This document shows positions 1-60,182 of a stretch of DNA of 64,000 nucleotides, piece by piece. The stretch lies in contig CM000432.1 of the NCBI GenBank assembly GCA_000165345.1, positions 896,001 through 960,000 on the forward strand, in the 5' to 3' direction. The notes beneath the pieces were generated by a model. It did no database searches. It was not told where the DNA came from and worked only from the letters and a program-made list of their open reading frames with translations. The translations under genes were made by a program, and so were the position numbers. Every line of letters begins with the position of its first letter. The first letter of the stretch is position 1.

Positions 1-876
1 CTCTTTCTCAATTTTTTTTTCTATAATTAAATATAAATCTTTACTTTCTCCCCCGCTTTGATTTTCAATTGCACTGTGCATCGTACCCGCCAAACACCGG
101 TACTGAATATATTACATTTTCCACATGTAAAAAAAAAAACTTTTTTTTTCTACATAAAATGATTAACTAAGTAATTATTAAGAAGAATACCTTTTGTTTC
201 TCTTTTTTTTCATACTCAATATTTTATTTGAGCTTGTTTGCAATTGAAAGTATTTAAAGGTACCACTGCTATTTCCCCACAAAAGTGTGAATATAAATAT
301 TATTGAATAAGAACAAAAAATAAATTTTTGTTAATAAATATTATTATTATTCCTAGTATATATCAGGTTTCAAAACTTAGGTAGTAAAAATGAATATAAA
401 TGAGTTCTATTATTGTGATTAGTTTGATATATTATGATAATCATTTGATAAAAGAAAAATTTGTTGAATAGTAATAAAAATCATATATTTGAGTCCAATT
501 CATATAAAAAAAAAGAAAAGTTATTTAAACTAATTTGAAAGAAGTTATAAGAGTAGTAGAATTATTATTATTAATAATTGTTTCTTCTTTATTTCAAATT
601 CATTTCTGACATGACTAATATTTGAGATAAATTGTCTCGATTTTACCGCCCAAAGTTTATATTTTTTCTAAATGCTGTTTTATAGGTGGTTTGACAAAGA
701 AGGGATTGAATAAAAAAAAGTATTTATAATCAAGTGATAAATATTTTTAATAGTAATAGCAGTAGAGATATTAAAGTAAATAAACTAGTTTTAAATGCAA
801 AATTTATATTTCTAATTTAATAATATCTTACTTATAATGAAAAAGAAAAAAACCATTATTAAAACAATTAAAAATA

Positions 877-5668: not shown

Positions 5669-6734
5669 TCACCTATTATTAAATCCATTAATTTACCAAA
5701 ATTTGCTACCTTAATAATTTATCCAAAAGCAATTAAAAGAATGGATAGGTAATAAAGATAGAATGATAAAAATGTTATACCTATAATTATGGCCTTTGTT
5801 TATTTATTATTTCGCTATGTTTATCTTTGCCACCCCACAAATTCCTTTCTTTTCTTACTTTAGCTGGGAACCTTAGTATTAATAGTTGCTAGTATCACTT
5901 CACTCGGAAATTTAATGAGAAAATGTCTTAATCTTTTATTAGAGTTGCATGAATTATCCTTTTTTATTTACTTTGCTTTTCTTATCCTATTCTTGTTATT
6001 CTTTTTTTTTTTTGATAAAGTTCTTACATTCCCACATTTAATAGAGTTCGCGCCTTTTTACCGCATATTACTTACGTATTTATGATTTAAATATGATATT
6101 ATGGTAAAATAAATATAAATTTAAGTTCCTATTCTTTTTCCTTCTTTCTCGAATATTTATCTTTATATTTAGAATATAGATGGGATATTATAACTAGTTA
6201 TTGTTATTGTAATTTTAAGCAACACTCTGAATTTCTATTCAAAGTTGTAGAAATTAATTTGTTTTCTTGATAGATTCTCAGAATTTCGACTCATTATTGG
6301 CATCTTTCTAATGATATTTTTAAATAAATTCCATTTTTATTCGTATATTCAAAGATAGAAAATATTCTAAAATAGAACAGAAATTGTAATTTTTTATTTT
6401 TTTTTGTTTTTAGAAAATTTAATTCTTGGTTTGAAATTAACTAGATTATTGCTATCTGCTTCCACGTAATTAAATGCATGCATGTGAGCAAATTTTTAAA
6501 AAAATATTCATGTGGAAGGCCGGTATTGAATGAGTGAGTGGCGTAATTACATGCAATTATTGCAAATGAATGCAAAAAAAAATGTGCATGCTGTTTATAT
6601 ATTTTTAATATATAAAAAAAAAAAACAAAATGGAAATAAAGTTGAATAACATTTCTAATTTACAAATATATCAATAATGACTAATTATATTTAAATTTGA
6701 AACAAAGCTAAAGATCATACTCTGAATTTGGAAA

Positions 6735-9700: not shown

Positions 9701-10664
9701 GAAGTAATCTAGAAATTCCTTTAATATTATCACTTTCGGAATCTTTTGGATCAGATTTAATAAATTTCATGGATGGTTCAAAAATTAATTTGTCACCATA
9801 TTTAGATTTAGCCCTTTTCTTCTTATTTTGGTTTTCTGTATTGCTGTCTAATGGAATTGTTCCTCCCAATGAAAGCTTTAAATTCTCAATTTCTTCTTGG
9901 GAAAGGTCAGGAGAAAGCTCTAATTGAAGATTTTCATGATTTCCAATTGAAGAAGCAAATTCTTCATTTCCAGATAACATGCTACTAAAGTTTGAAGGCA
10001 AATTGATGATATTCTGAGAATTGGGTAGTTCTTCTTGAGAGTTATTTTTTGCATTTTCTGCAAGTTCCTCAAGCTCTAACTCCCTTAAAGCCTCCTCAAA
10101 TCTGGAGTAATCTACTGTAACTCGTTTTAATGCATTGTTGTGGTCAGCCTTCTTTTCGCAAATCTTTATCAGGTTTTCTATTTCTTTAATTGAATTTTCA
10201 TTATTACTCTCATTTTCTCGTTTTAGGGCTGCTTTAAACACAATTACAGCTTTATCAAATATATTAAGATAATATAATGCTTTTCCAGCTCTGTACCATC
10301 CTTTGGACCAGTTTGGATTTAATAAAATACATTCCTTTGCATCTTGAAAAGCTTTACTATAGTTATCTTCTTGCCCTAGTTTTAAGTAGCATTGACTTCT
10401 ATTTGATAATAACTTGGAAAGTTCTATTTTATCTTCATCCTTCAGGTCTATCTTATATCCAGAAATTGCTTGCGTAAATGAATTTATTGCATCAATATAT
10501 TTACCCTTACCAAACTCTATCTTTCCTTGTTCTGTAAATTTACCTAGAGAATATTTTACTATTCCAGGATCTATTCCTTTAAGTGTGGATTGTATTCCTG
10601 ATAAGTTGCCATTCCCAAGCTCGCTCATTAATTTGCAGACCGTGTCCTCAATATTAGGGTTCAT
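6735..10664 (-). CDS. large TPR-repeat protein (1309 aa) with a possible class-I SAM methyltransferase (PRMT-like) fold, PRMT9-like architecture
   Basis: N-terminal TPR-like repeats (AINSFTQAISGYK...GWYRAGKALYYLNIFDKAVIVFKAALK). Downstream segment VVFIGTGSFILPVNYY...NNVKFANFNLYHSE resembles PRMT motif I (VLDIGTGTGLLS) and post-I. ATG checked at 10664. Confidence 0.6.
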   Translation of the reverse strand: MNPNIEDTVCKLMSELGNGNLSGIQSTLKGIDPGIVKYSLGKFTEQGKIEFGKGKYIDAINSFTQAISGYKIDLKDEDKIELSKLLSNRSQCYLKLGQEDNYSKAFQDAKECILLNPNWSKGWYRAGKALYYLNIFDKAVIVFKAALKRENESNNENSIKEIENLIKICEKKADHNNALKRVTVDYSRFEEALRELELEELAENAKNNSQEELPNSQNIINLPSNFSSMLSGNEEFASSIGNHENLQLELSPDLSQEEIENLKLSLGGTIPLDSNTENQNKKKRAKSKYGDKLIFEPSMKFIKSDPKDSESDNIKGISRLLQISSEIQWFKRIIENFVDQYYLYADNWINLLNKLNAENVVFIGTGSFILPVNYYRKFGMSSNIIAITQAKSSSSIIHRLYSNISLSNNVKFANFNLYHSEFLKDFESSQKISSDELSSESNENKSLKIIHGNVQHLKSEFWNIFNPNSIIIDPSIFEPGILGYGLIPNLKSIPININRSNIVGNEQKMNISVTPSLIKVYIQFSDINIPSLNLENQSISEINMSRLNEGLWSPYWEAFKVNNAYSHIKYISKPILLGYLPLEEMLNKNKMNYFTLNSISSENFTISRIECKDENDADKQTYNGTIDYLLEPNTQINSILLSFKAIKELNDEEILLIDSSRDINQIGMESIIPPAINWIGGNITNDNLNNAVKIKFDFQIEETRIVINPNAESLSLLKKEQLIKYKLPNKFSTSLPRSVIEYLWDTKSIEMLSNALINNYKSSIIHNTAGKIFEGLITSTSPGAILPMILLFISSKMNKSTQNNLYSNWKKSDFHFTCIENLPNVQDLYMKIIKDNLHILLSDVVENEIKKLYNHDMSLNDNLEANQSKYWKPMSEVSEDCRGLENLNKEKEYQEKMKYYQWISNNSSAKHILNKKLSERLTFFNCDVRQILPKTANIGPNTSNIQYYFVEEKVRLFTGLNFDHDGLSEGIIPLWGTAFSNGLVRKYNNNKVPNIPVPNRISFYGFVARIGPNLCDEHNIDISFWDTYRFEGNSQWIPIKNNNKYNISEMSKIFHILTLDLNSEEFLKLSDWKKEINSKIIKQGRVNSVVVFFDLWIDDGNVLTTSPLFVDNTERINSFNYLEENTPTTTSSSNSVNSAINELTENTIPMESIQNDLNKKICYHKTTFWKPVLHMIPQKMFEIQDSIEFEFRVEDNFTKLKFKINAINSNNGENTPSTITSDDAENSPSILPPLGDISYLQLRERYNSIVKEISPTIYSNNSVISVQAFNASLSIALNPSHYQGEHAILEDDIPYDIDSLNWLCQSFLL

Positions 10665-11804
10665 TTTCTTATTCTCTTTTTTTTCCCCCTATATTTTCAA
10701 GTAGAATAAAAAAAAAAAGCAAAAACCTAATTTAATTAAAGTTTTTATCAAATTTAAAAAGAACAAAAAAACCTTAATTTTTTTTTCTATAAAAGTAATT
10801 GACATTGCATTTATATTGCAGTTGTGCATAACAATAAGTTACCGGCATTTATAACTAAGTTTCGTGTTATTTTCTATTAATTCCTCTTGTGGGGGCAAAA
10901 AATAAGGAGACTCCTAAACTATTCTATTATTTAAATTAGTACTAAAATTAATAGTTTTACTATTTTTATTTATTAGAAGACGTGAAGTATTATTATTAAT
11001 AAAAAATAATTTATTTAAAATTGACACACATCAGGCGGGCTCTGCCCAACAAATTAATTTAAGAAAATGCAGCTTTAATGTTAGAGCATTTAAATACTTA
11101 TAATTATTTCATAAGAAGACGTCAATTTGAATTGTTGTTTAGCAATATTAATCCTTTATAATTCTCTCTTTATTTTTATTAACTCTGAAGACAACTATTA
11201 ATGGTTTTTTTGTTAAAACCAAATAATTATTATCCTAAATTATATTATCCTCGCATTTTGCTTTATATTACGTAATTACATGTAATAATTACAATTATTT
11301 GCATGCATATTTGTTTTCTGTTAGAGTTTTGTAATGTGGCAATGAAATTATTAAATTACATACCGGTGTTCAAGTTGGAAAATTATGTGTCACAATAACA
11401 TTTATTTACAAAAACTATTAATATTATTTTATTCTTAAATAAAAACATTATGAAATATTTATTTATTATTGATCATTATTTCTTTTCAATTTTTGAAAAA
11501 ACATTGTAATATCTTGATAAATTCTTTCTCTAAATAAATATAATTTGTGTAAAATTAGAAACAATAAAAATCAATAGGTAGAATAATAGCTGTAAGATAA
11601 TAGGAGAAATGAAATAAGGTAATTGTAAGGAAAAAAAAAGTTGAAAAGTTTATATTCTAGATTTATTAGAATAATAATATTAATAGTAGTTTGCGAAATA
11701 TAGGTGAATTCTATGTATTGACAAGAAGGAATTCGCGAAAAGAAAACTTGAAATTCAAGAAATTCCTCCATATAAAAACTCCCATCACTTTGGTGGAGAT
11801 AAAT

Positions 11805-12222
11805 TTAATGTTCTTCAGCTTTGTGGATAGGATTAATGAGTGGAAACATTTGAGAAAGGTAAACGCAAAACCACATAATCCATAGGCAGAAAGTCATCAT
11901 TACTACCACAACAAGTGAAATCCTGAGAAGGCAAAAAAGTTATTAGTAGGTAATTTGCAGTTCTAGCCATCGTTTCAATGCAAAATTGATCTGTTTTGTA
12001 TTACTTTTTGTAAACAAAATCAGCAAATGACCAGAAGAAAATGCATCCTTTGACTAACAAAAGATACATATCCAATAATTAAACTTACTTAGCAGTATCA
12101 GATCTGGAAAGATTCTTACTTCCCTTAATACCAAAATATACTGTTGAAGAAACCGCAGCAATGAAACCCAGTACTCCAAAAATTATTGAACCAAAAATCG
12201 CATTATCATAAGGAGGAGCCAT
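11805..12222 (-). CDS. VMA9: V-type ATPase V0 subunit e (ATP6V0E/Vma9 homolog), 83 aa, two exons: 12089..12222 and 11805..11922, intron 11923..12088
   Basis: Not in the ORF track. Exon 1 encodes MAPPYDNAIFGSIIFGVLGFIAAVSSTVYFGIKGSKNLSRSDTA. The donor GTAAGT overlaps an in-frame TAA. A polypyrimidine acceptor (cttttttgccttctcag) lies 166 nt downstream. Exon 2 continues in frame with KISLVVVVMMTFCLWIMWFCVYLSQMFPLINPIHKAEEH*. The two-helix product aligns with subunit e (human [31 protein letters not shown], yeast MMFLMWAITFLCQLHPLVAP). A G-box GGGCGGGAAAG (12360-12370) sits about 140 bp upstream. Confidence 0.7.
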
Positions 12223-12827: not shown

Positions 12828-13955
12828 ATGGCAACTATTAATAATGCAGTATTTTTGTCAGATGATGAAGAAGATGAATCCTTTCATGGATCTGATGCCT
12901 CTTCTATAATAGAAGGTGAGAGGTAAGTCTTTAATAAATTAGATGGATTTTTTTTTTAAATATATTTAATTTCTACCACTTTAATATTTATGAACATAAA
13001 AGTTCTGAAGAAGAGGTTTCTAGTTCAACAAATAGAAAATCGAAAAAATCATCTTTAAAAGATGTAATTAATGATCGAAAAGTAGAAAAGATATACAAAG
13101 AGTTATTGGAAGAATCTAAAAAGGAATTTCAAGAAAGAGTATCTACTGTAAGTAAAGACCATTTTATGTTGGAATTTCAAAAGAAGTGTTTTGATCCATT
13201 AAGAAAGAAAAATTCGAATTTACATGAATTAAGACATTATGTAGATCTTGGTGTAAGTTTACAATTCCTCAAAACTAATGGAGAAATTGTTTGGAAAGAA
13301 TTATCAGAGAATTCTCAGCATAACAAAATTAATATAAGTTATGAAGCAAAGAGATTATCACAATTCTTACTTACTTAATCTCCATTTGATAATCGATTTT
13401 CTATTCACTAATTTCTTAATCACCTTTTCTTATAAATAGATTTCCAAAGTATTTGAGAATCCAATAAACTTTGATATTTCAAAATTCAAAATTTCGAGCC
13501 GAAATCTGAGCAAAGAATCAGAGAAAGAAACACGTAGGATGATTGAGGAAGCTCTAGGAAGTTTAGAGGAAAAAGGAGTGCGATATATTGATAAGAAAGT
13601 TAAATATGCAGGTGAAACGTACACTATTAAAGAAAAAGTCGACCCGGAGACATTTTCAAGGAAAAAAGCACGAACATCTTCCACAGGAATGCAAGCTCTT
13701 GATGAAATTGTTGCTAATCTTAATAAGGAAATTAACATTAACTCAATACAAAAATCACACTCTGATTGGACTGAATTTAGACAGATGGCGGGCCTCGAAT
13801 CTCAGCTTGAGCGCCAAAGAAAACATGGCTATATTTCAAAGACGGCATTTCTGCAAAAAGCAGATTGGAAATTACATGAAAAAGAACTTGAGATTAAGAG
13901 AAGAAGCGGTGGTAATAACAATATTAGCAGTAGTAGCAATGCAAGCGGTAACTAA
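12828..13955 (+). CDS. SWC5: BCNT-C domain protein (CFDP1/Swc5 homolog), about 287 aa, three exons: 12828..12922, 13003..13252, 13440..13955
   Basis: Acidic N-terminus (MATINNAVFLSDDEEDESFHGSDASS) typical of Swc5/CFDP1. C-terminal KSHSDWTEFRQMAGLESQLERQRKHGYISKTAFLQKADWKLHEKELEIKRR matches the BCNT-C domain. Two GTAAGT...AG introns (12923..13002 and 13253..13439) join three ORF pieces in frame. The ORF track shows them as separate 90-aa and 138-aa ORFs. The second intron is less certain than the first. Confidence 0.65.
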
Positions 13956-15122: not shown

Positions 15123-16168
15123 TTCTAAAATTTTTAAATATTATCTCAACTTTTAATCAATTGTTGTACTTGTAACTTAATATATACTTTAAATAATTAC
15201 TTAATCTCTGAATTACTACTTTTTCCATGTAATTTCTGCCTACTCAGCTCTTTGTTATTATTCTACAAATTTGTACTATATTCTTATTTGCATTCTTAAT
15301 TTAAATGACAAATAATCACACTTTGCCAAATTGCCGCCGGCGCCATCAGATTTTTATGCATAACAACCTAGTACCTGCGAGACTAAATGAAATATATATA
15401 CATATATTAATCTATTTAAAAAAATGTTTTAAGAAAATAAGAAGAAATTCATTTTCAAAATAATTAACAAATATTACAAATCTAATTTTGTTAAAAATCC
15501 TGACAATCTTTTCTCCTAATCTTTCGTGATCTCAACTTCTTTGGAAAAAAAAAGCAAAAAGAAACGTTTTTTTAACAGACAAGTTATTAATAACATAACA
15601 AACTTGTCTATACACTTTGATTCATTATCTATAATTAATACCTTCTTATTTCTACTATTAACTAATTATTCACACTACATCTTCCAAAAATTCCCGTCCT
15701 AATCTTATTTACCCCCCCGTTGTTTATTCCGGACTCCGGAGACAAGACGTAGGAGGCTATTGAATTTAATTAATGCCTTTAATAAATATAGTAGAAATAA
15801 GGTGGCGGTATTAATAAAGAAAATGAATAGTTAATAAATAGCAATATTATAGGTATAACGAATATAGAATATGAATCAATTAACAAATAAGTCATAATTG
15901 GATTTTAAGGGGAGTTTAAGGGAAATTAATTAATTAATATATATATTTATTTGTGTATATGTATAAATATTTAAGTACATTTTTATAGTTAAACCGACAC
16001 TGAACAAGTAAATAATAGATTATTGGAACAACTCTAATTATCTATTATTTGACAGGAATTGTCAGTAAAGATTCATTCAAATTAAGTTTTCTATTTGTTC
16101 TTATGTACTCGAGGCACTCAATAATTTATGAGAGTTTGATAAAAAAAATGTTCACTTTGCAAATTTAA

Positions 16169-18109
16169 ATGAGATTGAGAAACTGGTGTATCCTTTCAAT
16201 CTTCATACTTCTGATTAAATCGTTAGATAATATATGTTTTGCTTCTAATGGAGAATTTAATTCGTTAACTATAGCTTCATATACGCAGCAAAATCAACAA
16301 AGAATAGCAACATTAGCAACTTATAAAAAGAAGATCAATGATTCCAATAAAAGGATATTTAAGCTAAAAAAAATCATTTGTAGAATATTACAAGTACAAC
16401 AGGAAAATAATCAAACGGGATTTAATTCAAACTCTAAAGCTACAAGAATTTCAGATAGACATCAAGATGCCATTGTTACTACTAGTGGAAGTAATAATAA
16501 AAGTAGTACTTCCGATAATGATGAACTTGAAAAGAAACTTTCTGAAGTTGTTGTATCTTTATTAGACGAACAGGCTAAATTCGCAAACTTGATATTGAAA
16601 AGAATAATAATATTTTGGAATCCAAGTTTAAACTTTGGAGTTGATATCTCATCTAAAGGAGCATTAGAACGAGGATTTCTTGATATGCTTGGTTTAGGAG
16701 ACAAGCAAATTTGGAGTGGATCTAATTATGGTGGTAAACTTATAAGAGCTACAGACTCTGAGAATAGAATACAAGAGTCTCTATCAAAATTGATTAGTCT
16801 TACTGAATTATATAGATATCTAATGGTACATAACTATCTTCATATTATTGGTTCCATTTATAGACATACAAAAAATTTTGAAAGAACTGTCAGATCAAGA
16901 CTTAGGTTATTTAAAAAAATGAGAGATAGGCTGGTAAGCACAAGAGATTCTTTAGCTTTGATATTAAATACAGATTTACCAGATGACGTTAATTTACCAC
17001 ACCCTATTTCTCCTCCTTGTTATCTTAATATGGGAGAGAATTGTAATGAAGAAATGTATAATCAAATCTTGAATGAAATAGCTTTTTTCAAAACAGTTCA
17101 AGATGAGAATAGAGAGCTTTCAACTAGAATTCGTGATGGATCATGTGGAAACCATGAAGTTACAGGATGTACATTCTGTGAAATCAAGAAAGCAAGGATA
17201 TCTTTGATTGAATGGGCATTTAATGATATTCAATCAGATTTAACTAGACTAGAAAGGGATTTGAAGCTTTGCCAGGAAACAATTAAACGGAATAATGGAA
17301 ATGATTTATCCATTTCCAAATTTAATAGAGGCGGAGGAGGTTTTGAACCAAACTTGGATTATAACATTTCTGATTCTTCAGAAACTATGCTCGGATATGG
17401 ATCTAGCGAGCTAAGCAATGATCAAAATGAAACCAATTCATATGGTAATTTTTCAAGTGAATTTGGAAATAATGCAAGGCCAACAGGAAACATGAATAGA
17501 AGATCACGAACTTGCTCAAGCACGGAGATTAAAAGATATAAAAGAAGATCCTTTCATCATAAAACGTCAAAAAAGACTTCGAAGCGTAGATATCTTAAAT
17601 CAAGGAGGACAAAGACAATTAGGAAATCTAAAGATTGCGATGCTGATCCTTTTTTAGCGGATAACAATAATGATGGTGTATCAAATGTAAGTAGTTCCCA
17701 CAAAAATCAAATTCATTCCACAGATTCTAAAAATAGTAGCTCACCTTCAGGTTTTAAGAGTGATTATAATAACAGAAGAAGATCTATATCAGGAGGAGGC
17801 AAACAAACAACCGAAAATAATGATCTGGGTATATCTTCCCCCTTTCTTAGTACCTCTGAAACTAGTAGTCATTCTTCAGATTGCGAATATGAGTCAGAAA
17901 CAGACGCATCCTCACCTTTTAATGGTGAAACAAATTCTATTACGAATACACCCGAGATTCATAGCTCTGTAAGTCCGAAAAGTACCGTATCACCGGAAAC
18001 CAAAAGGGGCTACTCTTCAGCTCCAAATGATTCCATCCAATCGCTTAAAACTGAAGTTCCACAATCTCTCTCCAACACACAAAACAATAAAAGAAAAAAT
18101 AGGAGGTAA
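16169..18109 (+). CDS. hypothetical secreted protein (646 aa) with signal peptide, coiled-coil middle and basic Ser/Arg/Lys-rich C-terminal tail
   Basis: N-terminus MRLRNWCILSIFILLIKSLDNICFASNG is a signal peptide. Tail has RRSRTCSS, KRYKRRSFHHKTSKKTSKRRYLKSRRTK. True ATG at 16169. Confidence 0.6.
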   Translation: MRLRNWCILSIFILLIKSLDNICFASNGEFNSLTIASYTQQNQQRIATLATYKKKINDSNKRIFKLKKIICRILQVQQENNQTGFNSNSKATRISDRHQDAIVTTSGSNNKSSTSDNDELEKKLSEVVVSLLDEQAKFANLILKRIIIFWNPSLNFGVDISSKGALERGFLDMLGLGDKQIWSGSNYGGKLIRATDSENRIQESLSKLISLTELYRYLMVHNYLHIIGSIYRHTKNFERTVRSRLRLFKKMRDRLVSTRDSLALILNTDLPDDVNLPHPISPPCYLNMGENCNEEMYNQILNEIAFFKTVQDENRELSTRIRDGSCGNHEVTGCTFCEIKKARISLIEWAFNDIQSDLTRLERDLKLCQETIKRNNGNDLSISKFNRGGGGFEPNLDYNISDSSETMLGYGSSELSNDQNETNSYGNFSSEFGNNARPTGNMNRRSRTCSSTEIKRYKRRSFHHKTSKKTSKRRYLKSRRTKTIRKSKDCDADPFLADNNNDGVSNVSSSHKNQIHSTDSKNSSSPSGFKSDYNNRRRSISGGGKQTTENNDLGISSPFLSTSETSSHSSDCEYESETDASSPFNGETNSITNTPEIHSSVSPKSTVSPETKRGYSSAPNDSIQSLKTEVPQSLSNTQNNKRKNRR

Positions 18110-18121
18110 AGACCGACTGCA

Positions 18122-18148
18122 ACGGCGCCGGCGCCGGCCAAGCCCCGC
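18122..18148. promoter_or_regulatory. GC-rich element CGGCGCCGGCGCCGGCC...GCCCCGCC (doubled E2F-like core plus G-box-like) in a 3'-3' intergenic region
   Basis: A 27-bp stretch that is mostly G/C, 13 bp after the stop of the 16169 gene. No nearby 5' end of an annotated gene. Confidence 0.4.
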
Positions 18149-18951: not shown

Positions 18952-19378
18952 TCACTCTTGCTTATCAGCTTCACGCTTTTTCTTTTTTTCCTCTCTATTT
19001 TCAGAAGGGAGCCAGTTAACTTTGTTTCTGCAATACATTGGCCAGGAAGGAACACAAACCTGAAATTAAGAATTAAAAATGCAAAATTATTAATTCCCGC
19101 GACTTACTAGAAGAGTGATAGCCAGACCTAATAAAGTTGTCAGTACCGTATAATAGAACTTTTGGTGGTAAAATCCAATAATAAACGACATAATCCCTGT
19201 TAATATAACCAGTCGTTCTTGAATCTTATATGCTAGATCTTGTCCGGAAAAATCCTAATTTTTCAGTAAATGTAAGTGTTTTTAAGTTAAAGTGATCAAT
19301 AATTATTTCTTTTTCTTTTAAACTTACGTGAATATTTTCCTCTAAACAATTTTTGATGTGTAGTATTGTTCCTAACAT
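18952..19378 (-). CDS. SPCS1: signal peptidase complex subunit 1 (SPCS1/Spc12 homolog), 101 aa, three exons: 19328..19378, 19108..19254, 18952..19059
   Basis: Spliced product MLGTILHIKNCLEENIH|DFSGQDLAYKIQERLVILTGIMSFIIGFYHQKFYYTVLTTLLGLAITLL|VCVPSWPMYCRNKVNWLPSENREEKKKKREADKQE*. It aligns along its length with human SPCS1 ([28 protein letters not shown]...[22 protein letters not shown]). Both introns are GTAAGT...AG (19255..19327, 73 bp; 19060..19107, 48 bp) and phase-consistent. Only the last exon appears in the ORF track (18873..19055). Confidence 0.75.
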
Positions 19379-20441
19379 TGTATTTCTTTTAATCTTTTAC
19401 TTTTCTTCAGTTTGTAATATTTGCAGATTTTCAAGAAATAGGTGATATATCTTGAATATATATAAATATATATTTTGTAGTTAGAATAAGTTAAGTTTGA
19501 GTGTACTGTGTGTGGGAAACTGTTTATTTAATTTCTATATTTGAAATTCTTAAGAAGAAAAAAAACTTTAATTTGCTCCTGTAAAAGTTGGTATTATTAT
19601 TTGTTATTTTAGACTCAAAAGAATTTTTCCTATTCGGTACCTTGAGCGTGTAAATTGTATTCTTAAATCTTGTGTTTATTGAAATGAGTGAAGTAATTAA
19701 AAAAAATACTCTCTAATTTTTAATTAATGAGGTATTTTTAATTCTCGCACAGTTTGATTTTTTTTCATTTAGGTTTTTTATTTTTTTTTTACATATTAGG
19801 GTACCTAGTTTAATCTGCCCCCTTAAAACTTGTATACCGGCGAAATTATAATTTAAAAAAAAATGCCGGTATTAAAAATTATAATTGGAAGAGAAAGCCC
19901 GCCCAAATGCCAATTAGGGACAAATAATAAAATTAATTAGAGACGGAAAGTAATAAATGAAATAAAATAATTAGTAAACGGTATTGACATTAATTGAGAT
20001 GCCGGTTGAATGAAGGAAAATTGAGAAAAATTGAAAAAACTTTATTTTCTCTTTTTTTTTTCTATATATATATAAGAAGAAAAACAACAAAGAAAACGCA
20101 GAATAAAGTAGAGCCCTATAAGTGGGAGGTTCTGTGAGAAGTTTGTTGGGTGGAAAAGATCAAGAAAATAAAGAATAAGGTACTACTATTTGAGAGGTTA
20201 GAATAAAGGTTATTGGATAATAATATCTGATTCTTTGGGTTTCAAAGTAATAACTGATTAACTGGATAATACTAGTAAGATTCAGTAGAGCTTATAAAAG
20301 AATCAAAGTTTGATAAGTATAATAATATAAGAGATCATATTATAGGATACCTAAAGATTAATTATTTGATATCCCATTTAAGATTGAATACAATTATTTA
20401 TAGAATAGGAAGATTTGTGTACATATTAGGAAAAAGTAATC

Positions 20442-23400
20442 ATGCAGGGTAAATTTTGGGCAGAAGGCTCAGAGTCTTCTTCAATGGACTCCTCCAATAG
20501 TGAAAGTGAGAGCTCGTCAGACTCCGAGATGGAGATGCAGGCAGCTCGTCGTCGTCAAAGAGAGATGAATAATTCTAGATGGGCAATTGATTCCGACTCT
20601 GATAGCAGTGAAGACGACCGTAGAGTTGTACGAGGAGCTAAAGAGAAATTTCATGATGAATTGAGGATGATTATTAGAAGGGTTAATAACCATGTGAAGG
20701 TGTCTGATTTCAGCTCTCTAAGTGATGAATACGATAAATTATTAAAGTGTATGCAAAAATCTCAAAATGCTATTAAGAATTATGGAATTCCAAAGTTTTT
20801 CATTTCAGTTTTAGTTGAACTGGAAGCATTTCTTGATGAGAAATTTAGAGACAAGGAGGCTATTAAGAAACTTTCAAAGGCAAAGGCTACAAGTTTCAAT
20901 ACTTTAAGGGCTAAATTTAGGAAGTCAGTAGAAGAATATCGTGATCAAATGGATGATTGCAAGAATAATCCTCTTGCCTATCAGGATGATAATTTAAGTG
21001 ACGATGATTCAGATTCTAACTCGTATTCAGATTCAGATTCTGATTCTGATTCAGATTCTGATTCATCTAGCTCATCATCAGGTTCAGACTCAAGATCAGT
21101 ATCAGGATCTGACTCAGATGGTAATGGTAGCGGCTCAGACGAATCGTCATCAGACTCTGATTCATCATCATCTTCTTCTTCTTCAGAATGGTCATCTTAT
21201 GAAGATGAATATGAAGATCGTCACGCATCTGCATTAGCTAAATGGGGAACCAGAACAAAGAGTGTGAAAAAGAAGGAAAGTGGAAAGAAAGCTAATCGTC
21301 AAAAACAAGTTAAGAAAGACTTGCAAGATACTACAGTAAGTGGAGGAGCTAATAATAATATTCCTTCAGGAGATCTTTTGTCATTTGAAGGTGAAGTAAC
21401 TGTAGATATGATTGTGGAAAAAGTTGGTGAAATTGTTGCAGCTAGAGGAAAGAAAGGAACTGATAGACAAGAGCAGATTCGTCTGTTGAAAAAGGCTGCA
21501 GAAATCTCCAGACCACTTTCACTCCAGGCCTATGCAGATGTTCTTACCCACTTAATATCAGCTCAATTTGACACAATTACTGGAGCTTTCCATTGTATAA
21601 CATCTGGAATATGGTCAGAAATATGTGATAACATTAACATTTTACTGGATCTAGTCCTACTCAATAACAAAGACAAGAGAGTGTACATTTCAGGCTTCCA
21701 AAGCTTTATTTCATCCAAAGATAAAAAGAAAAAGGCTTCAGGTGACAGTTCTGGCGCCGGCGCCAATTCTGGAATGGATGCACATGGAAATAGCTTGGAT
21801 GGTGAAAATGCTAATACTGATGAAAACTCTTCTTTAGGTGATATTGTAGATCTAAAGGAGCAAGACAAAAGTACTGTTACTTTCCTTGTTTCATTTATTG
21901 AGAGACTTGATGGAGAGTCTCTCAAGGCACTTCAACTTACTGACGTGCACTCAAGTGAATACAAAGATAGACTTGTTCAGTCACTCCATCTTTTGGCGCT
22001 CTTATGGAGATGCTATAAGATCTGTGAAGAAAGAGGCTATTATGATCTTGTTTCCAGTCTCTCAGTACACTTAATCAATCAACTTCATTTTAAAAATGAT
22101 TCCCTTGCTATAAAAGTTTGGGAATTTGTCAGACAAATACTTGAAAAAACAGTCAATTCATCCCTCAGTTCTGAGGAATTGAGCGCCAACTCTGACTCAT
22201 CCAATACTGATTGTGCAGGAAAAATCCCTGATATACCGGTACCTAAGAAATTTAAACCAAGTGAGCTTATTACGGAATTGGTGGGGAATGTTTACAAATA
22301 TGGGGATTCTAAGGACAAACTGAGGGTTTTGATTCAGCATGTTTATAATATGGCACTTCATGATAATTATAATGAGGCAGTGACTTTATTCCAATCTATA
22401 GGAGTATATGACATGGCATTAGGATCTGATGTAAATATTCAGATCCTCTATAACAGGTCTTTAGTTCAGCTTGGTCTTTCTGCATTTAGACTTGGACAGA
22501 TTTCTGAAGCCCAGCAACTTCTAAGTGAAATTTGTATGCCAAATAGAAATAGAGAGTTGCTTGCTCAGGGTATGAGTAATATGAAATCACAAGAAAGAAC
22601 ACCAGAACAAGAGCGGGCTGAGAAGAGAAGACTTTTACCATATCATATGCATCTTTCACTTGAAGTTATTGATTGTATTTATCTTATTTGCTCTATGCTA
22701 CTGGAAGTACCTTATTTGGCTTATCACAAATCTTTAATTATGCAAAATGAAGCATCAAATAGCCATATTAAGTTAAGACCTATTTCTAAACAGTTTAGGA
22801 GATTATTAGAACAATATGAGCGCCAAGCTATTACTGGTCCTCCTGAGAGTCTTAGGGATACAATCATTGCTGCTACAAGATCTCTTCAACTTGGTAAATG
22901 GAGAGAATGCAGAGACTACGTATTTTCTCTATCTATTTGGGACTATAATCAAGAAGATTTACAACAAACACAAGAAAGATTGGAATTAAATATCAAACAA
23001 GAAGCACTCAGAACATATTTATTTACTTATGGACACCTTTACAGCTCATACTCGGTTAATAATCTAATTGAGATGTTCCAACTTCCTAGAGAAAAGATTC
23101 ATTCACTTCTTTCTAAGATGATGCTCAAGAATGAATTACAAGCCTTATGGGATCAAACCGGAGAGTTTGTTTTATTAAATCATAAGCAAGCAAGTAAGAT
23201 TCAAAATGATTCTTTAATTGTTGCTGATAAGCTCTTACAATTTGTTGATTGTAACGAATCTATGATTTCTTCTAAAGGCAATGCAAGTGGAGGTAAAAAT
23301 CCTAATGTTATTAATAATAGAAACTCTGCAGGAGTAGGAAATCCCAATAATCAAGGAGGAATTGGCCCAGGCTCTGTACAAGGAGGCGGACCAAATAATA

Positions 23401-23564
23401 CAAGCAACACTAATTCATCCGGTACTGGTAACCAATCATTCAATTCTAATTACTATTCAAGAAAAACTAATTCTGGACAGTATAATAAGCACAAAAATAC
23501 TTCATCTTCATCATCGTCAGTACCTTCTTCATCATCTATGAATCTTAGACCAATCCGTGTATGA
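20442..23564 (+). CDS. EIF3C: eukaryotic translation initiation factor 3 subunit C (eIF3c/NIP1), 1040 aa
   Basis: RVVRGAKEKFHDEL, ARGKKGTDRQEQIRLL, QILYNRSLVQLGLSAFRLGQ and PYHMHLSLEVIDCIYLICSMLLEVPYLA match conserved eIF3c blocks. Acidic SD-repeat N-terminal region and PCI-domain C-terminus. Confidence 0.9.
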   Translation: MQGKFWAEGSESSSMDSSNSESESSSDSEMEMQAARRRQREMNNSRWAIDSDSDSSEDDRRVVRGAKEKFHDELRMIIRRVNNHVKVSDFSSLSDEYDKLLKCMQKSQNAIKNYGIPKFFISVLVELEAFLDEKFRDKEAIKKLSKAKATSFNTLRAKFRKSVEEYRDQMDDCKNNPLAYQDDNLSDDDSDSNSYSDSDSDSDSDSDSSSSSSGSDSRSVSGSDSDGNGSGSDESSSDSDSSSSSSSSEWSSYEDEYEDRHASALAKWGTRTKSVKKKESGKKANRQKQVKKDLQDTTVSGGANNNIPSGDLLSFEGEVTVDMIVEKVGEIVAARGKKGTDRQEQIRLLKKAAEISRPLSLQAYADVLTHLISAQFDTITGAFHCITSGIWSEICDNINILLDLVLLNNKDKRVYISGFQSFISSKDKKKKASGDSSGAGANSGMDAHGNSLDGENANTDENSSLGDIVDLKEQDKSTVTFLVSFIERLDGESLKALQLTDVHSSEYKDRLVQSLHLLALLWRCYKICEERGYYDLVSSLSVHLINQLHFKNDSLAIKVWEFVRQILEKTVNSSLSSEELSANSDSSNTDCAGKIPDIPVPKKFKPSELITELVGNVYKYGDSKDKLRVLIQHVYNMALHDNYNEAVTLFQSIGVYDMALGSDVNIQILYNRSLVQLGLSAFRLGQISEAQQLLSEICMPNRNRELLAQGMSNMKSQERTPEQERAEKRRLLPYHMHLSLEVIDCIYLICSMLLEVPYLAYHKSLIMQNEASNSHIKLRPISKQFRRLLEQYERQAITGPPESLRDTIIAATRSLQLGKWRECRDYVFSLSIWDYNQEDLQQTQERLELNIKQEALRTYLFTYGHLYSSYSVNNLIEMFQLPREKIHSLLSKMMLKNELQALWDQTGEFVLLNHKQASKIQNDSLIVADKLLQFVDCNESMISSKGNASGGKNPNVINNRNSAGVGNPNNQGGIGPGSVQGGGPNNTSNTNSSGTGNQSFNSNYYSRKTNSGQYNKHKNTSSSSSSVPSSSSMNLRPIRV
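21010..21075 (+). repeat. in-frame (GATTCW)n Ser-Asp dipeptide repeat inside eIF3c
   Basis: tcagattcagattctgattctgattcagattctgattca encodes DSDSDSDSDSDS within a longer S/D-rich tract. Confidence 0.8.
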
Positions 23565-23760: not shown

Positions 23761-24129
23761 CTATGAATGCTTCCACATTATACTTAATGTATCTATATAG
23801 TTGATATTCTGTAATTCACATTTTATACATTCTTTTAAGTATTCTTTACTATTTTCAAGTTTTTGAGTTATTTTTTCCAACTTTATTTTATCCTGGAATT
23901 CTTTAATTCTCTCTAAATCGCTTTCATCTCTAACTGAACTCTCTAGAATATATTCGTAAAACTCTTTCTGATCTTTACATAGAGTCTCTATCTTATTATA
24001 TAGTTTGTCATACTCATTCATAATATTAAACTCTTTATTGCTACTATTTTCCAATATACTATTTCTTGTGATTTCAATTGCAGCCAAAACTCCCATTTCT
24101 AAATTCTTAATCCATTCACAAACCTCCAT
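23761..24129 (-). CDS. hypothetical coiled-coil protein (122 aa). N-terminus may be extended by an upstream exon
   Basis: ORF MEVCEWIKNLEMGVLAAIEI... The reading frame stays open about 90 nt upstream of the ATG without another ATG, so the start is uncertain. Confidence 0.4.
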   Translation of the reverse strand: MEVCEWIKNLEMGVLAAIEITRNSILENSSNKEFNIMNEYDKLYNKIETLCKDQKEFYEYILESSVRDESDLERIKEFQDKIKLEKITQKLENSKEYLKECIKCELQNINYIDTLSIMWKHS

Positions 24130-29508: not shown

Positions 29509-32196
29509 TTATATATTTGTATTGTTGACTATATTAACATTTGATGTTAAATCTTTAGAATTTCCTGTGTAATTACTCCATTCTGTATTTAAATTTGTAT
29601 TATTTTGTATTAAAGAAGGAAATATTGGCATCATAAATGGATTTATGGATGGAATAAATGGTGAATAGGCTTGATATGGTAATTGTGTAGAAGAATATAC
29701 TCTTGCATGATTTTCCATGCTTAATTGATTATATCCTTGATCATTTTGCATATTAGAACTATTATTCATTCCAATACCATAAAATGGAGGATTACAACTA
29801 CCAAATAAAGGAGGTATACAGAAATTCAAAGGTAGAATATTTCCAAAAATAGGAGCATTATTTGAAGCAATACTTCTTGAATTTAAATTTGTATTAAACA
29901 TTTGTATCAAATTGGATCCATGAAATATGTTTGGAATACCATAAATGAAATTAGAAGATGCTAAATCTTCGGTACCATTTTCAATATGACTACTATCATT
30001 GATATTTTTGACCTCAAAACTTAAAGTATTAATAGTGTTATCATTTTCGTTATTTGTTTGTATTCCTTTTTTTTTATTTTCTTCCTGAGTTGATAAGTAA
30101 AAACTATAAGCTTGTTTATACTGTGATTCTCTTTCCATATTTGTGGAATTTAATGAAACCCTGAAAATTTGAGAAAGCTTCTGACCCTGTTTAAAATAAG
30201 TTACTTTCCATCCTCTTGGCTTCTTCCACCACTCAATCTTACTTTTTTGTAAATCTAACTTTTCGTGATCCAACCTTTGAATCTTACTAGCATTTTCAGA
30301 ATCATTATTAGATTTTCTCTTTTTTATCATCTTTTTTTCTAATACTTGATTTTGATTTTCATCAGTATAAAAGTATTTTCTATTATAATTAAGATTTTCA
30401 TTATTATTAAAATCTCCATTATCTTTGTTTTTATCATAATAAACTTTGTTATTTCTTAACATATCGCATAAAATCTCCTTACTTTGTCCCCCCTTAATAC
30501 CATATTTGATATCTAACAAAGTATAAATACCGTTTGACATTTGCATGCAATATTGCCCGCCTTTAGAAGTTTCAATTTGATCTTGATTAAACTCGAGATT
30601 ATCTTTAAGGTTTGAGTTAGATTCCAGTAATTTTGAAGATGAAATACCAGAACACTCACAATTTTCAAGAGTCTGAACTTTACCTTGTAATCTTGTGGCA
30701 ATCCTCCTTTTTTCGTTATAATTGGGGTAAACAGATCTATATCCATTGTCTTGAATATCAGTATGTAGCAAATTCATACAAGACTTTTTGTGGTTAATCA
30801 TTGTATTAAGGCAGACTTTTGAATTAGAATTTAAAACATTCTTAGAATTAAATTGAAAGAATCCATTTCCATAGTTTGTACAGGCAATAGGAGAATGTCC
30901 GGCAAGACCTCCTTCTGATAAGTAATTTAAATCATCATTTATTCTGGATGCATTTTCTATAATTTTATTCCATTGATTCAAATTGAATTCATTCTTTTGA
31001 GTTCCAATTTCTTCTACTCCAGCCATATTGATAATTTGAATGATATCATTTACTGCATAAAGGTGCTGTAATTCTCTTCTCGTTGTTTTATTTAATACTT
31101 CCTTGACAGTTTTCACGCCAAGAATGGAATCAAATATACCCCTAAGCAAAAAATTATAGTCATTGCTCCCAGCCTGATTAACCCCAAGTATCTGGGTAGC
31201 TTGACTAAATAACAAATCATATTCATCAATTGTGAACTTTTTGTTGCTTGTATATTCTAATACCAAGTTTCTTAGTTGTTTTCTACAGCTTGAATGTAAT
31301 TTTTCCCACTCAAAATGCTCACTATTATATTCTTCAAGTTGATTAAAGAAGTCAGAGTCAATGGATGAGAATAATAACATTATCTTTTGAATTAAATCGA
31401 CTGTTTTATGCTCGTGAGAGCTTTGAATTGAACAAAACTTCAAGGAAGGATCACTAAATTTATAGTATTCCGTCTCTTGAACTACCTTTGAGTTTTTATT
31501 TAAATTCTTATTAGAACAATCAGCAGTTTTTCTTTTAGAATAAGTAGATTTACTACTTTCTATAGATCCAATTTCCAAAAGAGTAGAATAAAATCCCTCA
31601 GGTAAACAGTTGATTGTTGCTCCATGTATTTTTTCTAGAAATTGAATTGCTCTTTTTGCAGCTCCTTCTTTACCAAATTTCTTACAACTCCATTGCTTAC
31701 AAGACCATTCATTATTATTTAACCATTCTACAATTACTTTACGTTTTTCCTTGTCTTCTTTAATGACTGAATTAAACTTGTTCATTTTTAAATTGATTGA
31801 ATTTTTATCATTTTCATGAGCTTGTATTTCATTTAAATGTGAATTTGACTCAACATTGGACTTTTTATGCTCTTCAAATTCTCTGATAGGAAAAGCTGGG
31901 TTACAACAATCAATCACTTGATCGCTACTACTAGCTGTTGTTGTTAAATAGTAATTTTTAGAATTTACTTGGTCCATATTATGCGGAGAAAATCCTTGAA
32001 TCTGGTCAAAATTTTGTATTATATTTTCACTATTATTCTTTAACTTATGATAAACCAGTTTACTATGAAATTCATCTTCAATTTCTGATTTAACTCCAGC
32101 TTGTTTGGAATTTTCTACGGTATCACAATATTCTGAAACTATTATAAGTTGTTCTTTTGATACTAATTCATCGTCAATTTTTGACTCACCAATCAT
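29509..32196 (-). CDS. ApiAP2-family transcription factor with two AP2-like domains (895 aa)
   Basis: KIEWWKKPRGWKVTYFKQGQKLSQIFRVS...YKQAYSFY and VIVEWLNNNEWSCKQWSCKKFGKEGAAKRAIQFL follow the apicomplexan AP2 pattern (V-x-W...W-x-A-x-W...K-x-FS...A-x-x-A). Rest is N/S-rich low complexity. A 1.4-kb motif-dense upstream region lies at 32197..33577. Confidence 0.6.
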   Translation of the reverse strand: MIGESKIDDELVSKEQLIIVSEYCDTVENSKQAGVKSEIEDEFHSKLVYHKLKNNSENIIQNFDQIQGFSPHNMDQVNSKNYYLTTTASSSDQVIDCCNPAFPIREFEEHKKSNVESNSHLNEIQAHENDKNSINLKMNKFNSVIKEDKEKRKVIVEWLNNNEWSCKQWSCKKFGKEGAAKRAIQFLEKIHGATINCLPEGFYSTLLEIGSIESSKSTYSKRKTADCSNKNLNKNSKVVQETEYYKFSDPSLKFCSIQSSHEHKTVDLIQKIMLLFSSIDSDFFNQLEEYNSEHFEWEKLHSSCRKQLRNLVLEYTSNKKFTIDEYDLLFSQATQILGVNQAGSNDYNFLLRGIFDSILGVKTVKEVLNKTTRRELQHLYAVNDIIQIINMAGVEEIGTQKNEFNLNQWNKIIENASRINDDLNYLSEGGLAGHSPIACTNYGNGFFQFNSKNVLNSNSKVCLNTMINHKKSCMNLLHTDIQDNGYRSVYPNYNEKRRIATRLQGKVQTLENCECSGISSSKLLESNSNLKDNLEFNQDQIETSKGGQYCMQMSNGIYTLLDIKYGIKGGQSKEILCDMLRNNKVYYDKNKDNGDFNNNENLNYNRKYFYTDENQNQVLEKKMIKKRKSNNDSENASKIQRLDHEKLDLQKSKIEWWKKPRGWKVTYFKQGQKLSQIFRVSLNSTNMERESQYKQAYSFYLSTQEENKKKGIQTNNENDNTINTLSFEVKNINDSSHIENGTEDLASSNFIYGIPNIFHGSNLIQMFNTNLNSRSIASNNAPIFGNILPLNFCIPPLFGSCNPPFYGIGMNNSSNMQNDQGYNQLSMENHARVYSSTQLPYQAYSPFIPSINPFMMPIFPSLIQNNTNLNTEWSNYTGNSKDLTSNVNIVNNTNI

Positions 32197-32879: not shown

Positions 32880-33070
32880 GCCACCGGTATACTGACCACA
32901 TGCAAAACTTTGTTTTTTTCATGCACTGAGCGCCAACTCTTCCCGCCCAATTGCATGCAAAAATTTGTAGTAAGTGGCAAATTTATGCATGCAAGGTGAA
33001 GAATAATCTACTGCTTGGCGCCAACGTAAATCTCAAAAAAAAAATTAGCATCTAAAATATGAAGGGAGGC
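32880..33070. promoter_or_regulatory. dense cis-motif cluster upstream of the AP2 gene: ACCGGTA, GCATGCA x3, E2F-like GAGCGCCAAC and TTGGCGCCAA, G-box CCCGCCC
   Basis: ccaCCGGTAtactg...catgcactGAGCGCCAActcttCCCGCCCaatTGCATGCAaaa...ttaTGCATGCAagg...gcTTGGCGCCAAcg. A further GCATGCA pair at 33440-33465. Confidence 0.55.
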
Positions 33071-51448: not shown

Positions 51449-52119
51449 ATAAAGTGTTGGTAGAGATTGGGTATTGGAAACCCCATCCTCTCATACGGTT
51501 TCTACAAATATTATTGTTACTGTCTTTTATCCTTCATTTATCTCTAACTGATACTAGTTACTATCAATCAAATCAAATTACATTTATTATTTTATTATTA
51601 ATATTACTAGAACCCCTTCCCATTATAATTAATTCTATTATTATTTTATAAATATCTTGTCCACATTATTAGCTTTTTATTCTTGCATGCAAATGCCGGT
51701 ATGTAGTAGGTAGTGAAATTGACAAGGCGGTAAAATTTTGTTGTTAAACATAATTAATACGTGTAAATTAATAATACCGGTATAAAGATAGTGCGCATGC
51801 ATACAGAAAAACAATAATTGGAGCCAAATTATATACTGACTGGCAGCCCCACGAAGATAACATGAAAAAAAAAACTAAAATTAATTTACCTGACATAAAT
51901 TATTAAAGCATAAAATCTTAAATTAATAAGTAATTAGAATAAAATCGAGTGAAATTAATTGTTTGTCATTATCTGTTAATAAAGTTTATTGACATTTTTT
52001 ATGTATTAATATTTCGAAAAAAACAATTCAAGTAAATAATTAAGTTAGCTATAAATAAATCATTATTCACGAATTAATGAATGTGGAATTAATTTCTTGA
52101 AAAAGGAAAGAAAAAGAAA

Positions 52120-59613: not shown

Positions 59614-60182
59614 ATGTAAAATTTAGTCTTTAAATTCGATTAGAATTTCTTTATTTAAGTAATTATTTTATAATTTATAAAAAAATTTGTGTTTTGGCGC
59701 CACATTTTTTTTAATCAAAAAAAAAGTACCGATAATTTTTTCTATACCGGTTACACGTAATTAAGTTATAAACCGGTATTTTTTTTTTTTTTTTTAATTT
59801 AAACAAAAATAAAAATTTGAAATTATGATATAATTGAACAATTATTAAATAAATCAATATATTCTGAAGATTAGCACTAATAAAATATTTTGAATTTAAC
59901 ATTTAAATAGTAAATGAAAGTACAAATTCAATAAACTTAGAACCCAAAGGAATATACAAAAACTCCGCCCCACACTATCATCTTTTGGATCTATTAACAA
60001 TATTAAACATAAATTGAATTAATTATTTTTGTGTGTATTGATAAAGAGATATTTTTTCTTTGTTATTATTATTATTTAATACATAAACAAAAAAAAAAAA
60101 AAGAAAAAGAAAGTGCATAAAAAAGAATTCAGAGTTGAAATTAAATATAATATAACAAACATTAACATTTTACTAATAAATT

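Follow-up and report, generated by a model that had tools for sequence, protein, structure and literature searches.

Does the CCGG-centred word that recurs between the genes of Cryptosporidium parvum chromosome 4 mark a regulatory element, and what kind of molecule would read it? Gene regulation in Cryptosporidium is poorly understood, and only a handful of upstream motif families have been catalogued. A first-pass annotation of the window analysed here, a 64-kb stretch of this chromosome that carries genes cgd4_37xx-39xx, had flagged such a word at 19830..20010 and listed further copies across the intergenic DNA. Judged from the sequence and from orthologous loci, the motif is real and conserved, a candidate cis-regulatory element that seems to be missing from the catalogues, and we put the probability that it is the binding site of a sequence-specific, probably dimeric transcription regulator within multi-motif promoter modules at roughly 0.7.

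Definition and enrichment of the palindrome

When aligned, the intergenic sites of the window (n=12) fit a dyad-symmetric consensus, A-Y-R-CCGG-Y-R-T, and the degenerate palindrome AYRCCGGYRT, whose optimum is ATACCGGTAT, is the best descriptor of the motif. A purine (A or G) stands immediately 5′ of CCGG in every site, T follows CCGGTA in 10 of them, and the Y-R rule holds in 10 on the left flank and in 10 on the right. Sites outside the strict palindrome combine one perfect half (ATACC/GGTAT) with one imperfect half. TACCGG or CCGGTA can be read in 9 of the 12 and ACCGGT in 6, while some instances carry AACCGG or CCGGTT; only 20002 and 59747 have AACCGG on one strand (sites are referred to by a coordinate within them, see Table 1). 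The motif is found in either orientation and its copies often come in twos or threes, 26-165 bp apart, the site groups being 19837/19866/20002, 51696/51777 and 59747/59773. A GC-rich extension is overlapped by a single site, TACCGGCG at 19834.

Enrichment was computed on a refined gene map (16.8 kb intergenic, 47.2 kb genic), in which gene calls from orthologous loci were mapped back by blastn, adding five small or intron-containing genes to the plain list of open reading frames (ORFs). Intergenic DNA holds 10 copies of the heptamer CCGGTAT/ATACCGG where an order-2 Markov model built on it predicts 1.0 (P=1.3e-7, or ~1e-3 once corrected for 8192 heptamers), and genes hold two, an intergenic/genic density ratio of 14 (Fisher 6e-5). 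The full AYRCCGGYRT occurs 4 times against 0.08 expected and is absent from the 47 kb of genes. Both excesses are significant under order-1 to order-3 models, whereas the bare hexamer CCGGTA is marginal under order 3 (12 vs 7.2, P=0.06). An unbiased ranking of heptamers places the motif at about fifteenth, below TGCATGC, GGCGCCA, GGCGGG-type words, G-runs and simple AT repeats; strong intergenic enrichment is likewise displayed by TGCATGCA, GGCGCCA, GGCGGGA and G-rich words.

Orthologous loci show the same excess of CCGGTAT over expectation: 8 vs 1.0 in C. ubiquitum, 8 vs 0.8 in C. meleagridis, 3 vs 0.3 in chipmunk genotype I and 5 vs 0.8 in C. felis, where genes contain none. A de novo ranking in C. 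felis returns ACCGGTA as the third-best GC-containing intergenic heptamer, behind AGGCGGG and GCATGCA. Isolated further instances lie in the flanks of these loci, a few kb outside the part that corresponds to the window (L006:25909, L008:17527, L011:23690).

These counts bear out most of the first-pass annotation and amend some of it. All eleven occurrences that it listed exist, ten of them within 4 bases of the coordinate given; the remaining one, aggCCGGTATtgaatg, had been placed at 6511 and is really at 6520, and TTACCGGCAT at 10839-10848 had been overlooked. Its impression that CCGGT recurs beyond chance agrees with 32 matches on both strands against 8.9 ± 3.2 in dinucleotide-preserving shuffles (maximum 18). 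The CCGGTA core of its consensus, (A/T)(G/C)CCGGTA(T), stands, and the G/C before CCGG gives way to the purine. The statement that the word is almost exclusively intergenic holds for CCGGTAT but passes over five or six coding occurrences of CCGGTA/CCGGTT (CCGGTA/TACCGG at 22236, 23419, 26426, 28333 and 42527; AACCGGTT at 4840); equal frequency in coding DNA, named there as grounds for dropping the idea, is not what the 14-fold density difference within the window indicates. Its grouping of the word with E2F-like, G-box and GCATGCA elements is fair, the motif being the weakest of the four, and its reading as a promoter cis-element is in keeping with both the intergenic enrichment and the conservation described below.

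Conservation in other species and half-site swaps

Orthologous regions were taken from C. ubiquitum (L001, L002), C. meleagridis (L006, L007), chipmunk genotype I (L005, L010, L011), C. canis (L003, 47% GC), C. felis (L008, L009), C. muris (L004) and a further Cryptosporidium, L012 (46% GC), and their spacers were aligned pairwise with those of the window. Between C. parvum and C. ubiquitum, whose spacers are 50-70% identical, 7 of 10 CCGGTA/TACCGG hexamers are perfectly kept; the background rate is 12.3% over the whole set of intergenic hexamers (binomial P=3.6e-5) and 15.8% over those that have four G/C (Fisher P=2.5e-4). The accepted elements behave alike in the same alignments (TGCATG 15/20, GGCGCC 6/9, GGCGGG 7/12), and other enriched words stay near background (AACTAG 2/14, G6 0/10). 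The conservation rate of the motif thus equals that of the accepted TGCATGCA and E2F elements. Chipmunk genotype I keeps 4/4 hexamers (background 18%) and C. meleagridis 10/11 (background 44%), so that conservation above the neutral background, a generic mark of cis-regulatory DNA, is found in all three species; site by site, 10 of the 12 are kept across this group.

The spacers of the distant, GC-richer species are barely alignable (36-48% identity). C. canis keeps 19866 and the entire 38-nt block around 32884, and L012 keeps 19866 and 20002. In C. felis, both sites upstream of cgd4_3870 survive, as does the composite element in front of the EMAP gene, but the eIF3c/TPR contig (L009, 50% GC) lacks strict sites upstream of either gene, so that this species shows only partial conservation. 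G+C is 46-50% in the orthologous loci of C. canis, C. felis and L012 (run SRR31860986) compared to ~29% in the window, with identical gene order, and this large shift in composition inside the genus makes retained AT-flanked motifs conspicuous.

Most “losses” of the strict hexamer leave CCGG in its alignment columns, and it is the perfect TA half that changes side. This is the case at 11363 (ATACCGGTG in C. parvum, ACACCGGTAT in C. ubiquitum), at 51696 (ATGCCGGTAT in C. parvum, ATACCGGTGT in chipmunk genotype I and C. felis) and at 19866 (ATGCCGGTAT in C. parvum, ATACCGGCAC in C. canis). Such half-site swaps would be neutral only if both halves of the duplex were read equivalently, which favours a dimeric DNA-binding protein over either a signal in RNA or a core-promoter box with a fixed direction.

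Promoter setting and neighbouring words

Each of the 12 sites shares its spacer with the 5′ end of one or more genes; five are in divergent promoters, and the distance from a site to the nearest start codon is 164-1226 bp. As SPC12(−) maps next to eIF3c(+), the flagged 19830..20010 lies in the divergent SPC12/eIF3c promoter. Other genes with sites upstream encode a TPR/Sti1-like protein, an Arc1p/EMAP-like tRNA-binding protein, a SNARE, the AP2 factor cgd4_3820 and cgd4_3870, and with SPC12 and eIF3c they form a functionally mixed and largely housekeeping set.

The sites have an E2F-like word at a median distance of 56 bp, whereas for intergenic positions drawn at random the figure is 229 bp (permutation P=0.002); no significant proximity is seen for TGCATG (permutation P=0.67) or, taken overall, for ACACGT (P=0.55). 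Within the flagged 180-bp stretch, three CCGG sites are accompanied by the E2F-like GCCCGCCC (19897-19904) and by GAGACGGAA (19940-19948), and in an alignment of four species these module words stand as islands of identity. Conserved blocks also hold 51696, abutted by TGCATGCAA, and TGGCGCCA, which is 50 bp from 59747. At 32884, ~38 nt are identical in C. parvum, C. ubiquitum and C. canis, and the block is flanked by CATGCA, GCGCCA/E2F-like and TGCATGCA words. An assay for transposase-accessible chromatin with sequencing (ATAC-seq) of sporozoites found open-chromatin peaks at 5′ ends, dominated by E2F motifs (bioRxiv 10.1101/2025.01.17.633476). Considering this report and the proximity to E2F-like words, the CCGG sites plausibly lie inside the accessible promoter core.

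Table 1 Motif sites and annotated genes of the window, with the state of each site in other Cryptosporidium species
Feature	Coordinates	Strand	Setting in C. parvum	Other species
Site ACACCGGTAC	94..103		11 bp from CCGCC E2F-like word; 1226 bp upstream of gene 1323-2090(+)	Kept in C. meleagridis; TACCGGagtgtggcgg in chipmunk genotype I (L010:21213)
Site AGGCCGGTAT	6517..6526		852 bp upstream of kinase gene 2429-5668(−); 215 bp past 3′ end of TPR gene	Kept in C. meleagridis; TTACCGGTAT in chipmunk genotype I although flanks diverge
Site TTACCGGCAT	10839..10848		178 bp upstream of TPR gene 6735-10664(−)	Kept in C. meleagridis, chipmunk genotype I, C. ubiquitum; gone in C. canis
Site ATACCGGTGT	11360..11369		Full AYRCCGGYRT match; 699 bp upstream of TPR gene	Kept in C. 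meleagridis, chipmunk genotype I; strong half on other side in C. ubiquitum (ACACCGGTAT)
Site ATACCGGCGA	19834..19843		Divergent SPC12(−)/eIF3c(+) promoter region	Kept in C. meleagridis, chipmunk genotype I, C. ubiquitum
Site ATGCCGGTAT	19863..19872		Full palindrome match; 31 bp from E2F-like GCCCGCCC	Kept in C. meleagridis, chipmunk genotype I, C. ubiquitum; ATACCGGCAC in C. canis; ATGCCGGTAT/AATGCCGGTATAG in L012
Site ATGCCGGTTG (variant)	19999..20008		440 bp upstream of eIF3c ATG; ~65 bp upstream of conserved block	CCGG core kept; ATGCCGGTAT in chipmunk genotype I and L012; ATGCCGGTGT in C. ubiquitum
Site CCACCGGTAT	32881..32890		688 bp upstream of AP2 gene cgd4_3820	Identical in C. ubiquitum, C. 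canis
Site ATGCCGGTAT	51693..51702		Immediately after TGCATGCAA; 424 bp upstream of cgd4_3870; 30 bp from GGCGG	Kept in C. meleagridis, C. ubiquitum (ATACCGGTAT); half-site swapped in chipmunk genotype I, C. felis (ATACCGGTGT)
Site ATACCGGTAT (perfect palindrome)	51774..51783		343 bp upstream of cgd4_3870; TACGTGTA 12 bp off	Kept in C. meleagridis, C. ubiquitum (ATGCCGGTAT), C. felis (ACGTGTAATACCGGTAT); degraded in chipmunk genotype I
Composite site ATACCGGTTACACGTAA	59744..59760		Divergent emap(−)/SNARE(+) promoter; CCGG site adjoins ACACGT word	Kept in C. meleagridis, chipmunk genotype I, C. ubiquitum; ACGTGTCACCGGTA in same intergenic region of C. felis
Site AAACCGGTAT	59770..59779		Only intergenic site confined to C. 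parvum	No counterpart at aligned position in C. meleagridis, chipmunk genotype I, C. ubiquitum, C. felis
V-ATPase subunit	11805-12222	−	Mapped back from orthologous gene calls	
BCNT	12828-13955	+	Mapped back from orthologous gene calls	
SPC12	18952-19378	−	Mapped back from orthologous gene calls	
eIF3 subunit C (eIF3c)	20442-23564	+	Gene downstream of flagged stretch	
127-amino-acid gene	23761-24129	−	Mapped back from orthologous gene calls	
AP2 protein cgd4_3820	29509-32196	−	Exact protein look-up	
cgd4_3870	52120-58326	+	Exact protein look-up	
EMAP/tRNA-binding protein (Arc1p/EMAP-like)	58375-59583	−	Exact protein look-up	
SNARE, cgd4_3890	60183-60893	+	Exact protein look-up	
TBC gene (full)	60900-62456	−	Mapped back from orthologous gene calls	

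Several observations concern the words around the motif. A dense module at 32850-33060, ~650-850 bp upstream of cgd4_3820, holds the identical 38-nt block, three TGCATGCA/CATGCA and three GGCGCC-type words and is conserved even in the 47% GC genome of C. canis. Both GAGACGGAA (19940-19948) and AGACGTG (~10990-11000) are invariant in all four aligned species and fit the poorly characterised “Unknown set 1” of GACG-type motifs (Oberstaller 2013). Four species share a conserved block before the eIF3c ATG, at ~20067-20179, which ends in AAG|GTAC, and a TAG acceptor is found near 20403; this suggests an exon of the 5′ untranslated region (UTR) and a ~224 nt intron in ~20067-20403, with transcription starting near 20060, just after the TATATATATA run. 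The eIF3c protein has 1007 amino acids in the C. hominis annotation and 1040 in the ORF of the window.

A second uncatalogued intergenic word, ACACGT/ACGTGT, usually in the form TACGTGT(A/C), is found at 24833, 33406, 46543, 46750, 51759, 59753 and 62994. It occurs 7-8 times in intergenic DNA and once in ORFs, the spacers of C. ubiquitum contain 10 copies against 1.7 expected, and 4/5 copies are conserved in that species. Upstream of the EMAP gene, it forms the composite ACGTGT-N2-CCGGTA with the CCGG motif in C. parvum, C. meleagridis, chipmunk genotype I, C. ubiquitum and C. felis.

The CCGG tetramers at 15337, 18128, 18134 and 21757 constitute a separate class, as they are the junctions of back-to-back E2F palindromes, GGCGCCGGCGCC. 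Regions of this type span 18120-18140, 15334-15345 and 21750-21765, and one such element lies 19 bp past the stop codon of gene 16169-18109, in a convergent spacer. Another, a perfect TGGCGCCGGCGCCA, is located inside the eIF3c coding sequence, and CGCCGGC is among the most enriched intergenic heptamers of C. canis. Inside the ankyrin ORF 39717-46280(−), TGCATGCAATACCGGTAA (42514-42533) repeats the layout of 51683-51702, TGCATGCAA followed by a CCGG site, and is retained in C. ubiquitum (L002:425-445); either an intragenic promoter, for instance of an antisense transcript, or plain coding conservation could account for it. Finally, there are 6 intergenic copies of AATGTGGG/CCCACATT where 0.43 would be expected, and none in ORFs; the word is probably the G-box-like DTGTGGGG of the catalogue. 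Runs of pure G6, in contrast, are never positionally conserved.

Competing readings and known DNA-binding factors

Combining these findings, we propose that a regulator would read the double-stranded, dyad-symmetric 5′-A-Y-R-C-C-G-G-Y-R-T-3′, most likely as a dimer, and that the motif would act regardless of its orientation as one component of compact promoter modules shared with E2F-like and often TGCATGCA words; its occupancy would then be expected to influence transcription. Several points weigh against this proposal. Its main limitation is sample size, the basis being 64 kb of C. parvum and the orthologous loci rather than the whole genome, and the hypothesis arose on this window, so that the P values obtained within it are post hoc and conservation is the independent part. 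Genome-wide MEME, AlignACE and FIRE searches on co-expression clusters did not report the motif, and neither did MEME on the ATAC-seq peaks (bioRxiv 10.1101/2025.01.17.633476). CCGGTAT and RCCGGY are absent from 6.6 kb of C. muris intergenic DNA, a sample too small for confident absence, and E2F words are still enriched at that locus. The absence of sites from convergent 3′/3′ spacers is not significant, as these total only ~1.9 kb. No orientation bias toward genes was detected, with 4 of the 6 sites in tandem spacers facing the gene; this lack of an orientation signal also argues against a directional core element.

The motif might instead bind a chromatin-organising or boundary factor, comparable to yeast Reb1 or Drosophila DREF/BEAF, that keeps promoters nucleosome-free or blocks read-through between closely packed genes. 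We consider this special case of protein binding improbable but the best placed of the alternatives, and the position data speak neither for nor against it. It would suit the mixed, housekeeping nature of the genes and the closeness of the sites to E2F-like words. In head-to-tail spacers, moreover, sites 97, 6520, 11363, 51696 and 51777 lie 215-450 bp past a stop codon, often closer to the 3′ end of the upstream gene than to the downstream ATG. The word may also resemble Myb-like sites such as those of Reb1 (TTACCCGG) and DMP1 (CCCGTATGT), and the palindromic housekeeping DRE (TATCGATA). Against this reading, the relative position of the sites in tandem spacers is scattered (0.2-0.84 of the spacer) rather than fixed at a boundary. 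A similarly low probability attaches to a further reading, in which AYRCCGGYRT would rank as a fourth major promoter element in the intestinal Cryptosporidium species and its dimeric reader would be missing from the gastric C. muris lineage or have changed its specificity there. Together with E2F, this factor would open or delimit promoters in a very compact genome instead of acting as a stage-specific switch; it could be a Cryptosporidium-specific AP2 protein without an array motif.

Less probable still is a directional core-promoter element, in which a GC-rich box like the TFIIB recognition element (BRE) would run into a TAT(A/T) similar to TATA, for example in CCGGTATAAAG at 51777, and would set the start of transcription ~30 bp downstream in one direction. 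The 3′ flank reads TAT in 10 of the 12 sites, TATA follows at 19837 (reverse strand), 32884, 51777 and 59747 (reverse strand), and 20002 is ~65 bp upstream of the conserved block that resembles an eIF3c 5′ UTR exon. A T-rich flank is weak evidence in an AT-rich spacer, however, and the strong half-site switches side between species, which would flip the direction of such an element. Furthermore, 6520 and 32884 face the 3′ end of a neighbour rather than a 5′ end, several copies occupy 26-165 bp of one promoter, and the distances to the ATG are widely spread.

We see very little room for a signal acting at the RNA level in a 5′ or 3′ UTR (translation, stability or 3′-end processing). The sites found 215-450 bp downstream of stop codons and the presence of translation-related neighbours (eIF3c, the EMAP-like protein) would fit such a signal, but the sites point either way with respect to the nearest genes, the five in divergent promoters are remote from any 3′ end, and the half-site swaps keep the symmetry of the duplex rather than the sequence of a strand. 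A non-coding RNA or tRNA at the conserved 32884 block was considered and rejected, as there is no Rfam match at the gathering score and no tRNA in the window. Weakest of all is a chance or compositional artefact or the remnant of a dispersed repeat: although only 12 sites in one 64-kb window support a word picked after the sequence had been viewed, and its bare hexamer is marginal, the longer forms are significant under all three Markov orders, the sites are conserved five-fold over a GC-matched background, the motif recurs in C. felis and L012 where spacers barely align, and a repeat is rejected by the unrelated flanks of different sites.

The published record was compared with the motif. None of the 25 IUPAC consensuses (11 families) in the catalogue of Oberstaller 2013 contains CCGG, CGGTA or TACCG, and the CCGG-type string matches in its supplement are E2F variants such as GGCGGTAA. 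The motif is absent from the 2007 and 2010 C. parvum motif papers, from an analysis of long non-coding RNA promoters and from Table 3 of a 2025 review, which lists only AP2_1, AP2_2, G-box, E2F, GAGA and CAAT-box. Literal searches for CCGGTA or CCGGT with Cryptosporidium or ApiAP2 returned primers only. The motif is apparently not yet described in the C. parvum motif literature. An earlier passing mention is possible in Bankier et al. 2003, reportedly concerned with overrepresented non-coding words of chromosome 6.

As for the protein, palindromes of 6-8 bp are characteristic targets of ApiAP2 domains, and our first guess is therefore a domain of this type that has no specificity assigned to it; otherwise, the reader might be a Myb-like or zinc-finger protein. 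ApiAP2 proteins are the dominant transcription factor family of the phylum (PMC4117751, PMC12246861), and C. parvum encodes several DNA-binding Myb proteins, including cgd6_4510, cgd3_2510 and cgd6_2250. The AP2 array survey gives TGCAT, CACACA and G-box as the main C. parvum specificities and GGTGCACC for cgd4_3820, and its authors note that many overrepresented motifs have no known factor; the 2025 review adds GCGTGCA, GTGTGT and AAAA for other AP2 proteins and leaves four without a motif. AP2 domains that lack one are those of cgd3_2970, cgd6_5320, cgd3_1980 and cgd6_1140. The comparison with these array motifs that the first-pass annotation had proposed yields no CCGG-like primary specificity. 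A conserved element with a clear consensus and named promoters (eIF3c/SPC12, cgd4_3870, EMAP/SNARE, cgd4_3820) is a concrete probe, which might serve to fish out an unassigned DNA-binding protein or to build minimal promoters for transgenes, and its apparent absence from C. muris would be a starting point for asking how gastric and intestinal species came to differ in their regulatory repertoire. The finding is incremental and brings no new principle.

Among known systems, the Drosophila DRE (TATCGATA), an 8-bp palindrome of the form TA-NNNN-TA that is bound by DREF/BEAF-32 in housekeeping promoters beside E2F sites, is similar in function only, its core being TCGA instead of CCGG and the organism unrelated; we know of no factor homologous to DREF/BEAF-32 in Apicomplexa. 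The Grainyhead/CP2 site AACCGGTT is bound by a dimer of a family described from fungi to animals (PMC5829564). It shares with the motif a dyad-symmetric CCGG centre, a likeness of the DNA word only, and differs in its outer bases, which are A-A where the motif prefers T-A/T-G; the CP2 family is not among the listed C. parvum transcription factor families, and no search aimed at CP2-domain proteins in Cryptosporidium was made. The c-Myb site YAACNG (reverse complement CNGTTR) accommodates the CCGGTT variants at 20002, 59747 and 4840, but the dominant CCGGTAT (ATACCGG) has T where the Myb core needs A, and a symmetric constraint on both flanks is foreign to single Myb sites. We therefore rejected a canonical Myb site, as 9 of the 12 sites read TACCGG/CCGGTA.

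The C. parvum E2F/DP sites ([A/T][C/G]GCGC[G/C][A/T], GGCGGG) are likewise GC-containing palindromic promoter words of an AT-rich genome; they co-localise with the motif and are conserved to a similar degree. Their core is GCGC or GCGG with TTT/AAA flanks, however, in contrast to CCGG with TA/TG, and they are enriched at the C. muris locus where the CCGG motif is not; with a CCGG core in all 12 sites, an E2F/DP assignment was rejected. The ApiAP2 palindromes (TGCATGCA for cgd2_3490/PF14_0633 and GGTGCACC for cgd4_3820) differ in that no published C. parvum array primary motif is of the CCGG type. They share with the motif a palindrome of 8-10 bp around a 4-bp symmetric core, intergenic enrichment, occurrence in either orientation and in multiple copies, and, within the window, the conservation rate of TGCATG. 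Short palindromes, typically of 6-8 bp, and enrichment upstream of genes are the hallmarks of ApiAP2 sites, and AYRCCGGYRT displays both.

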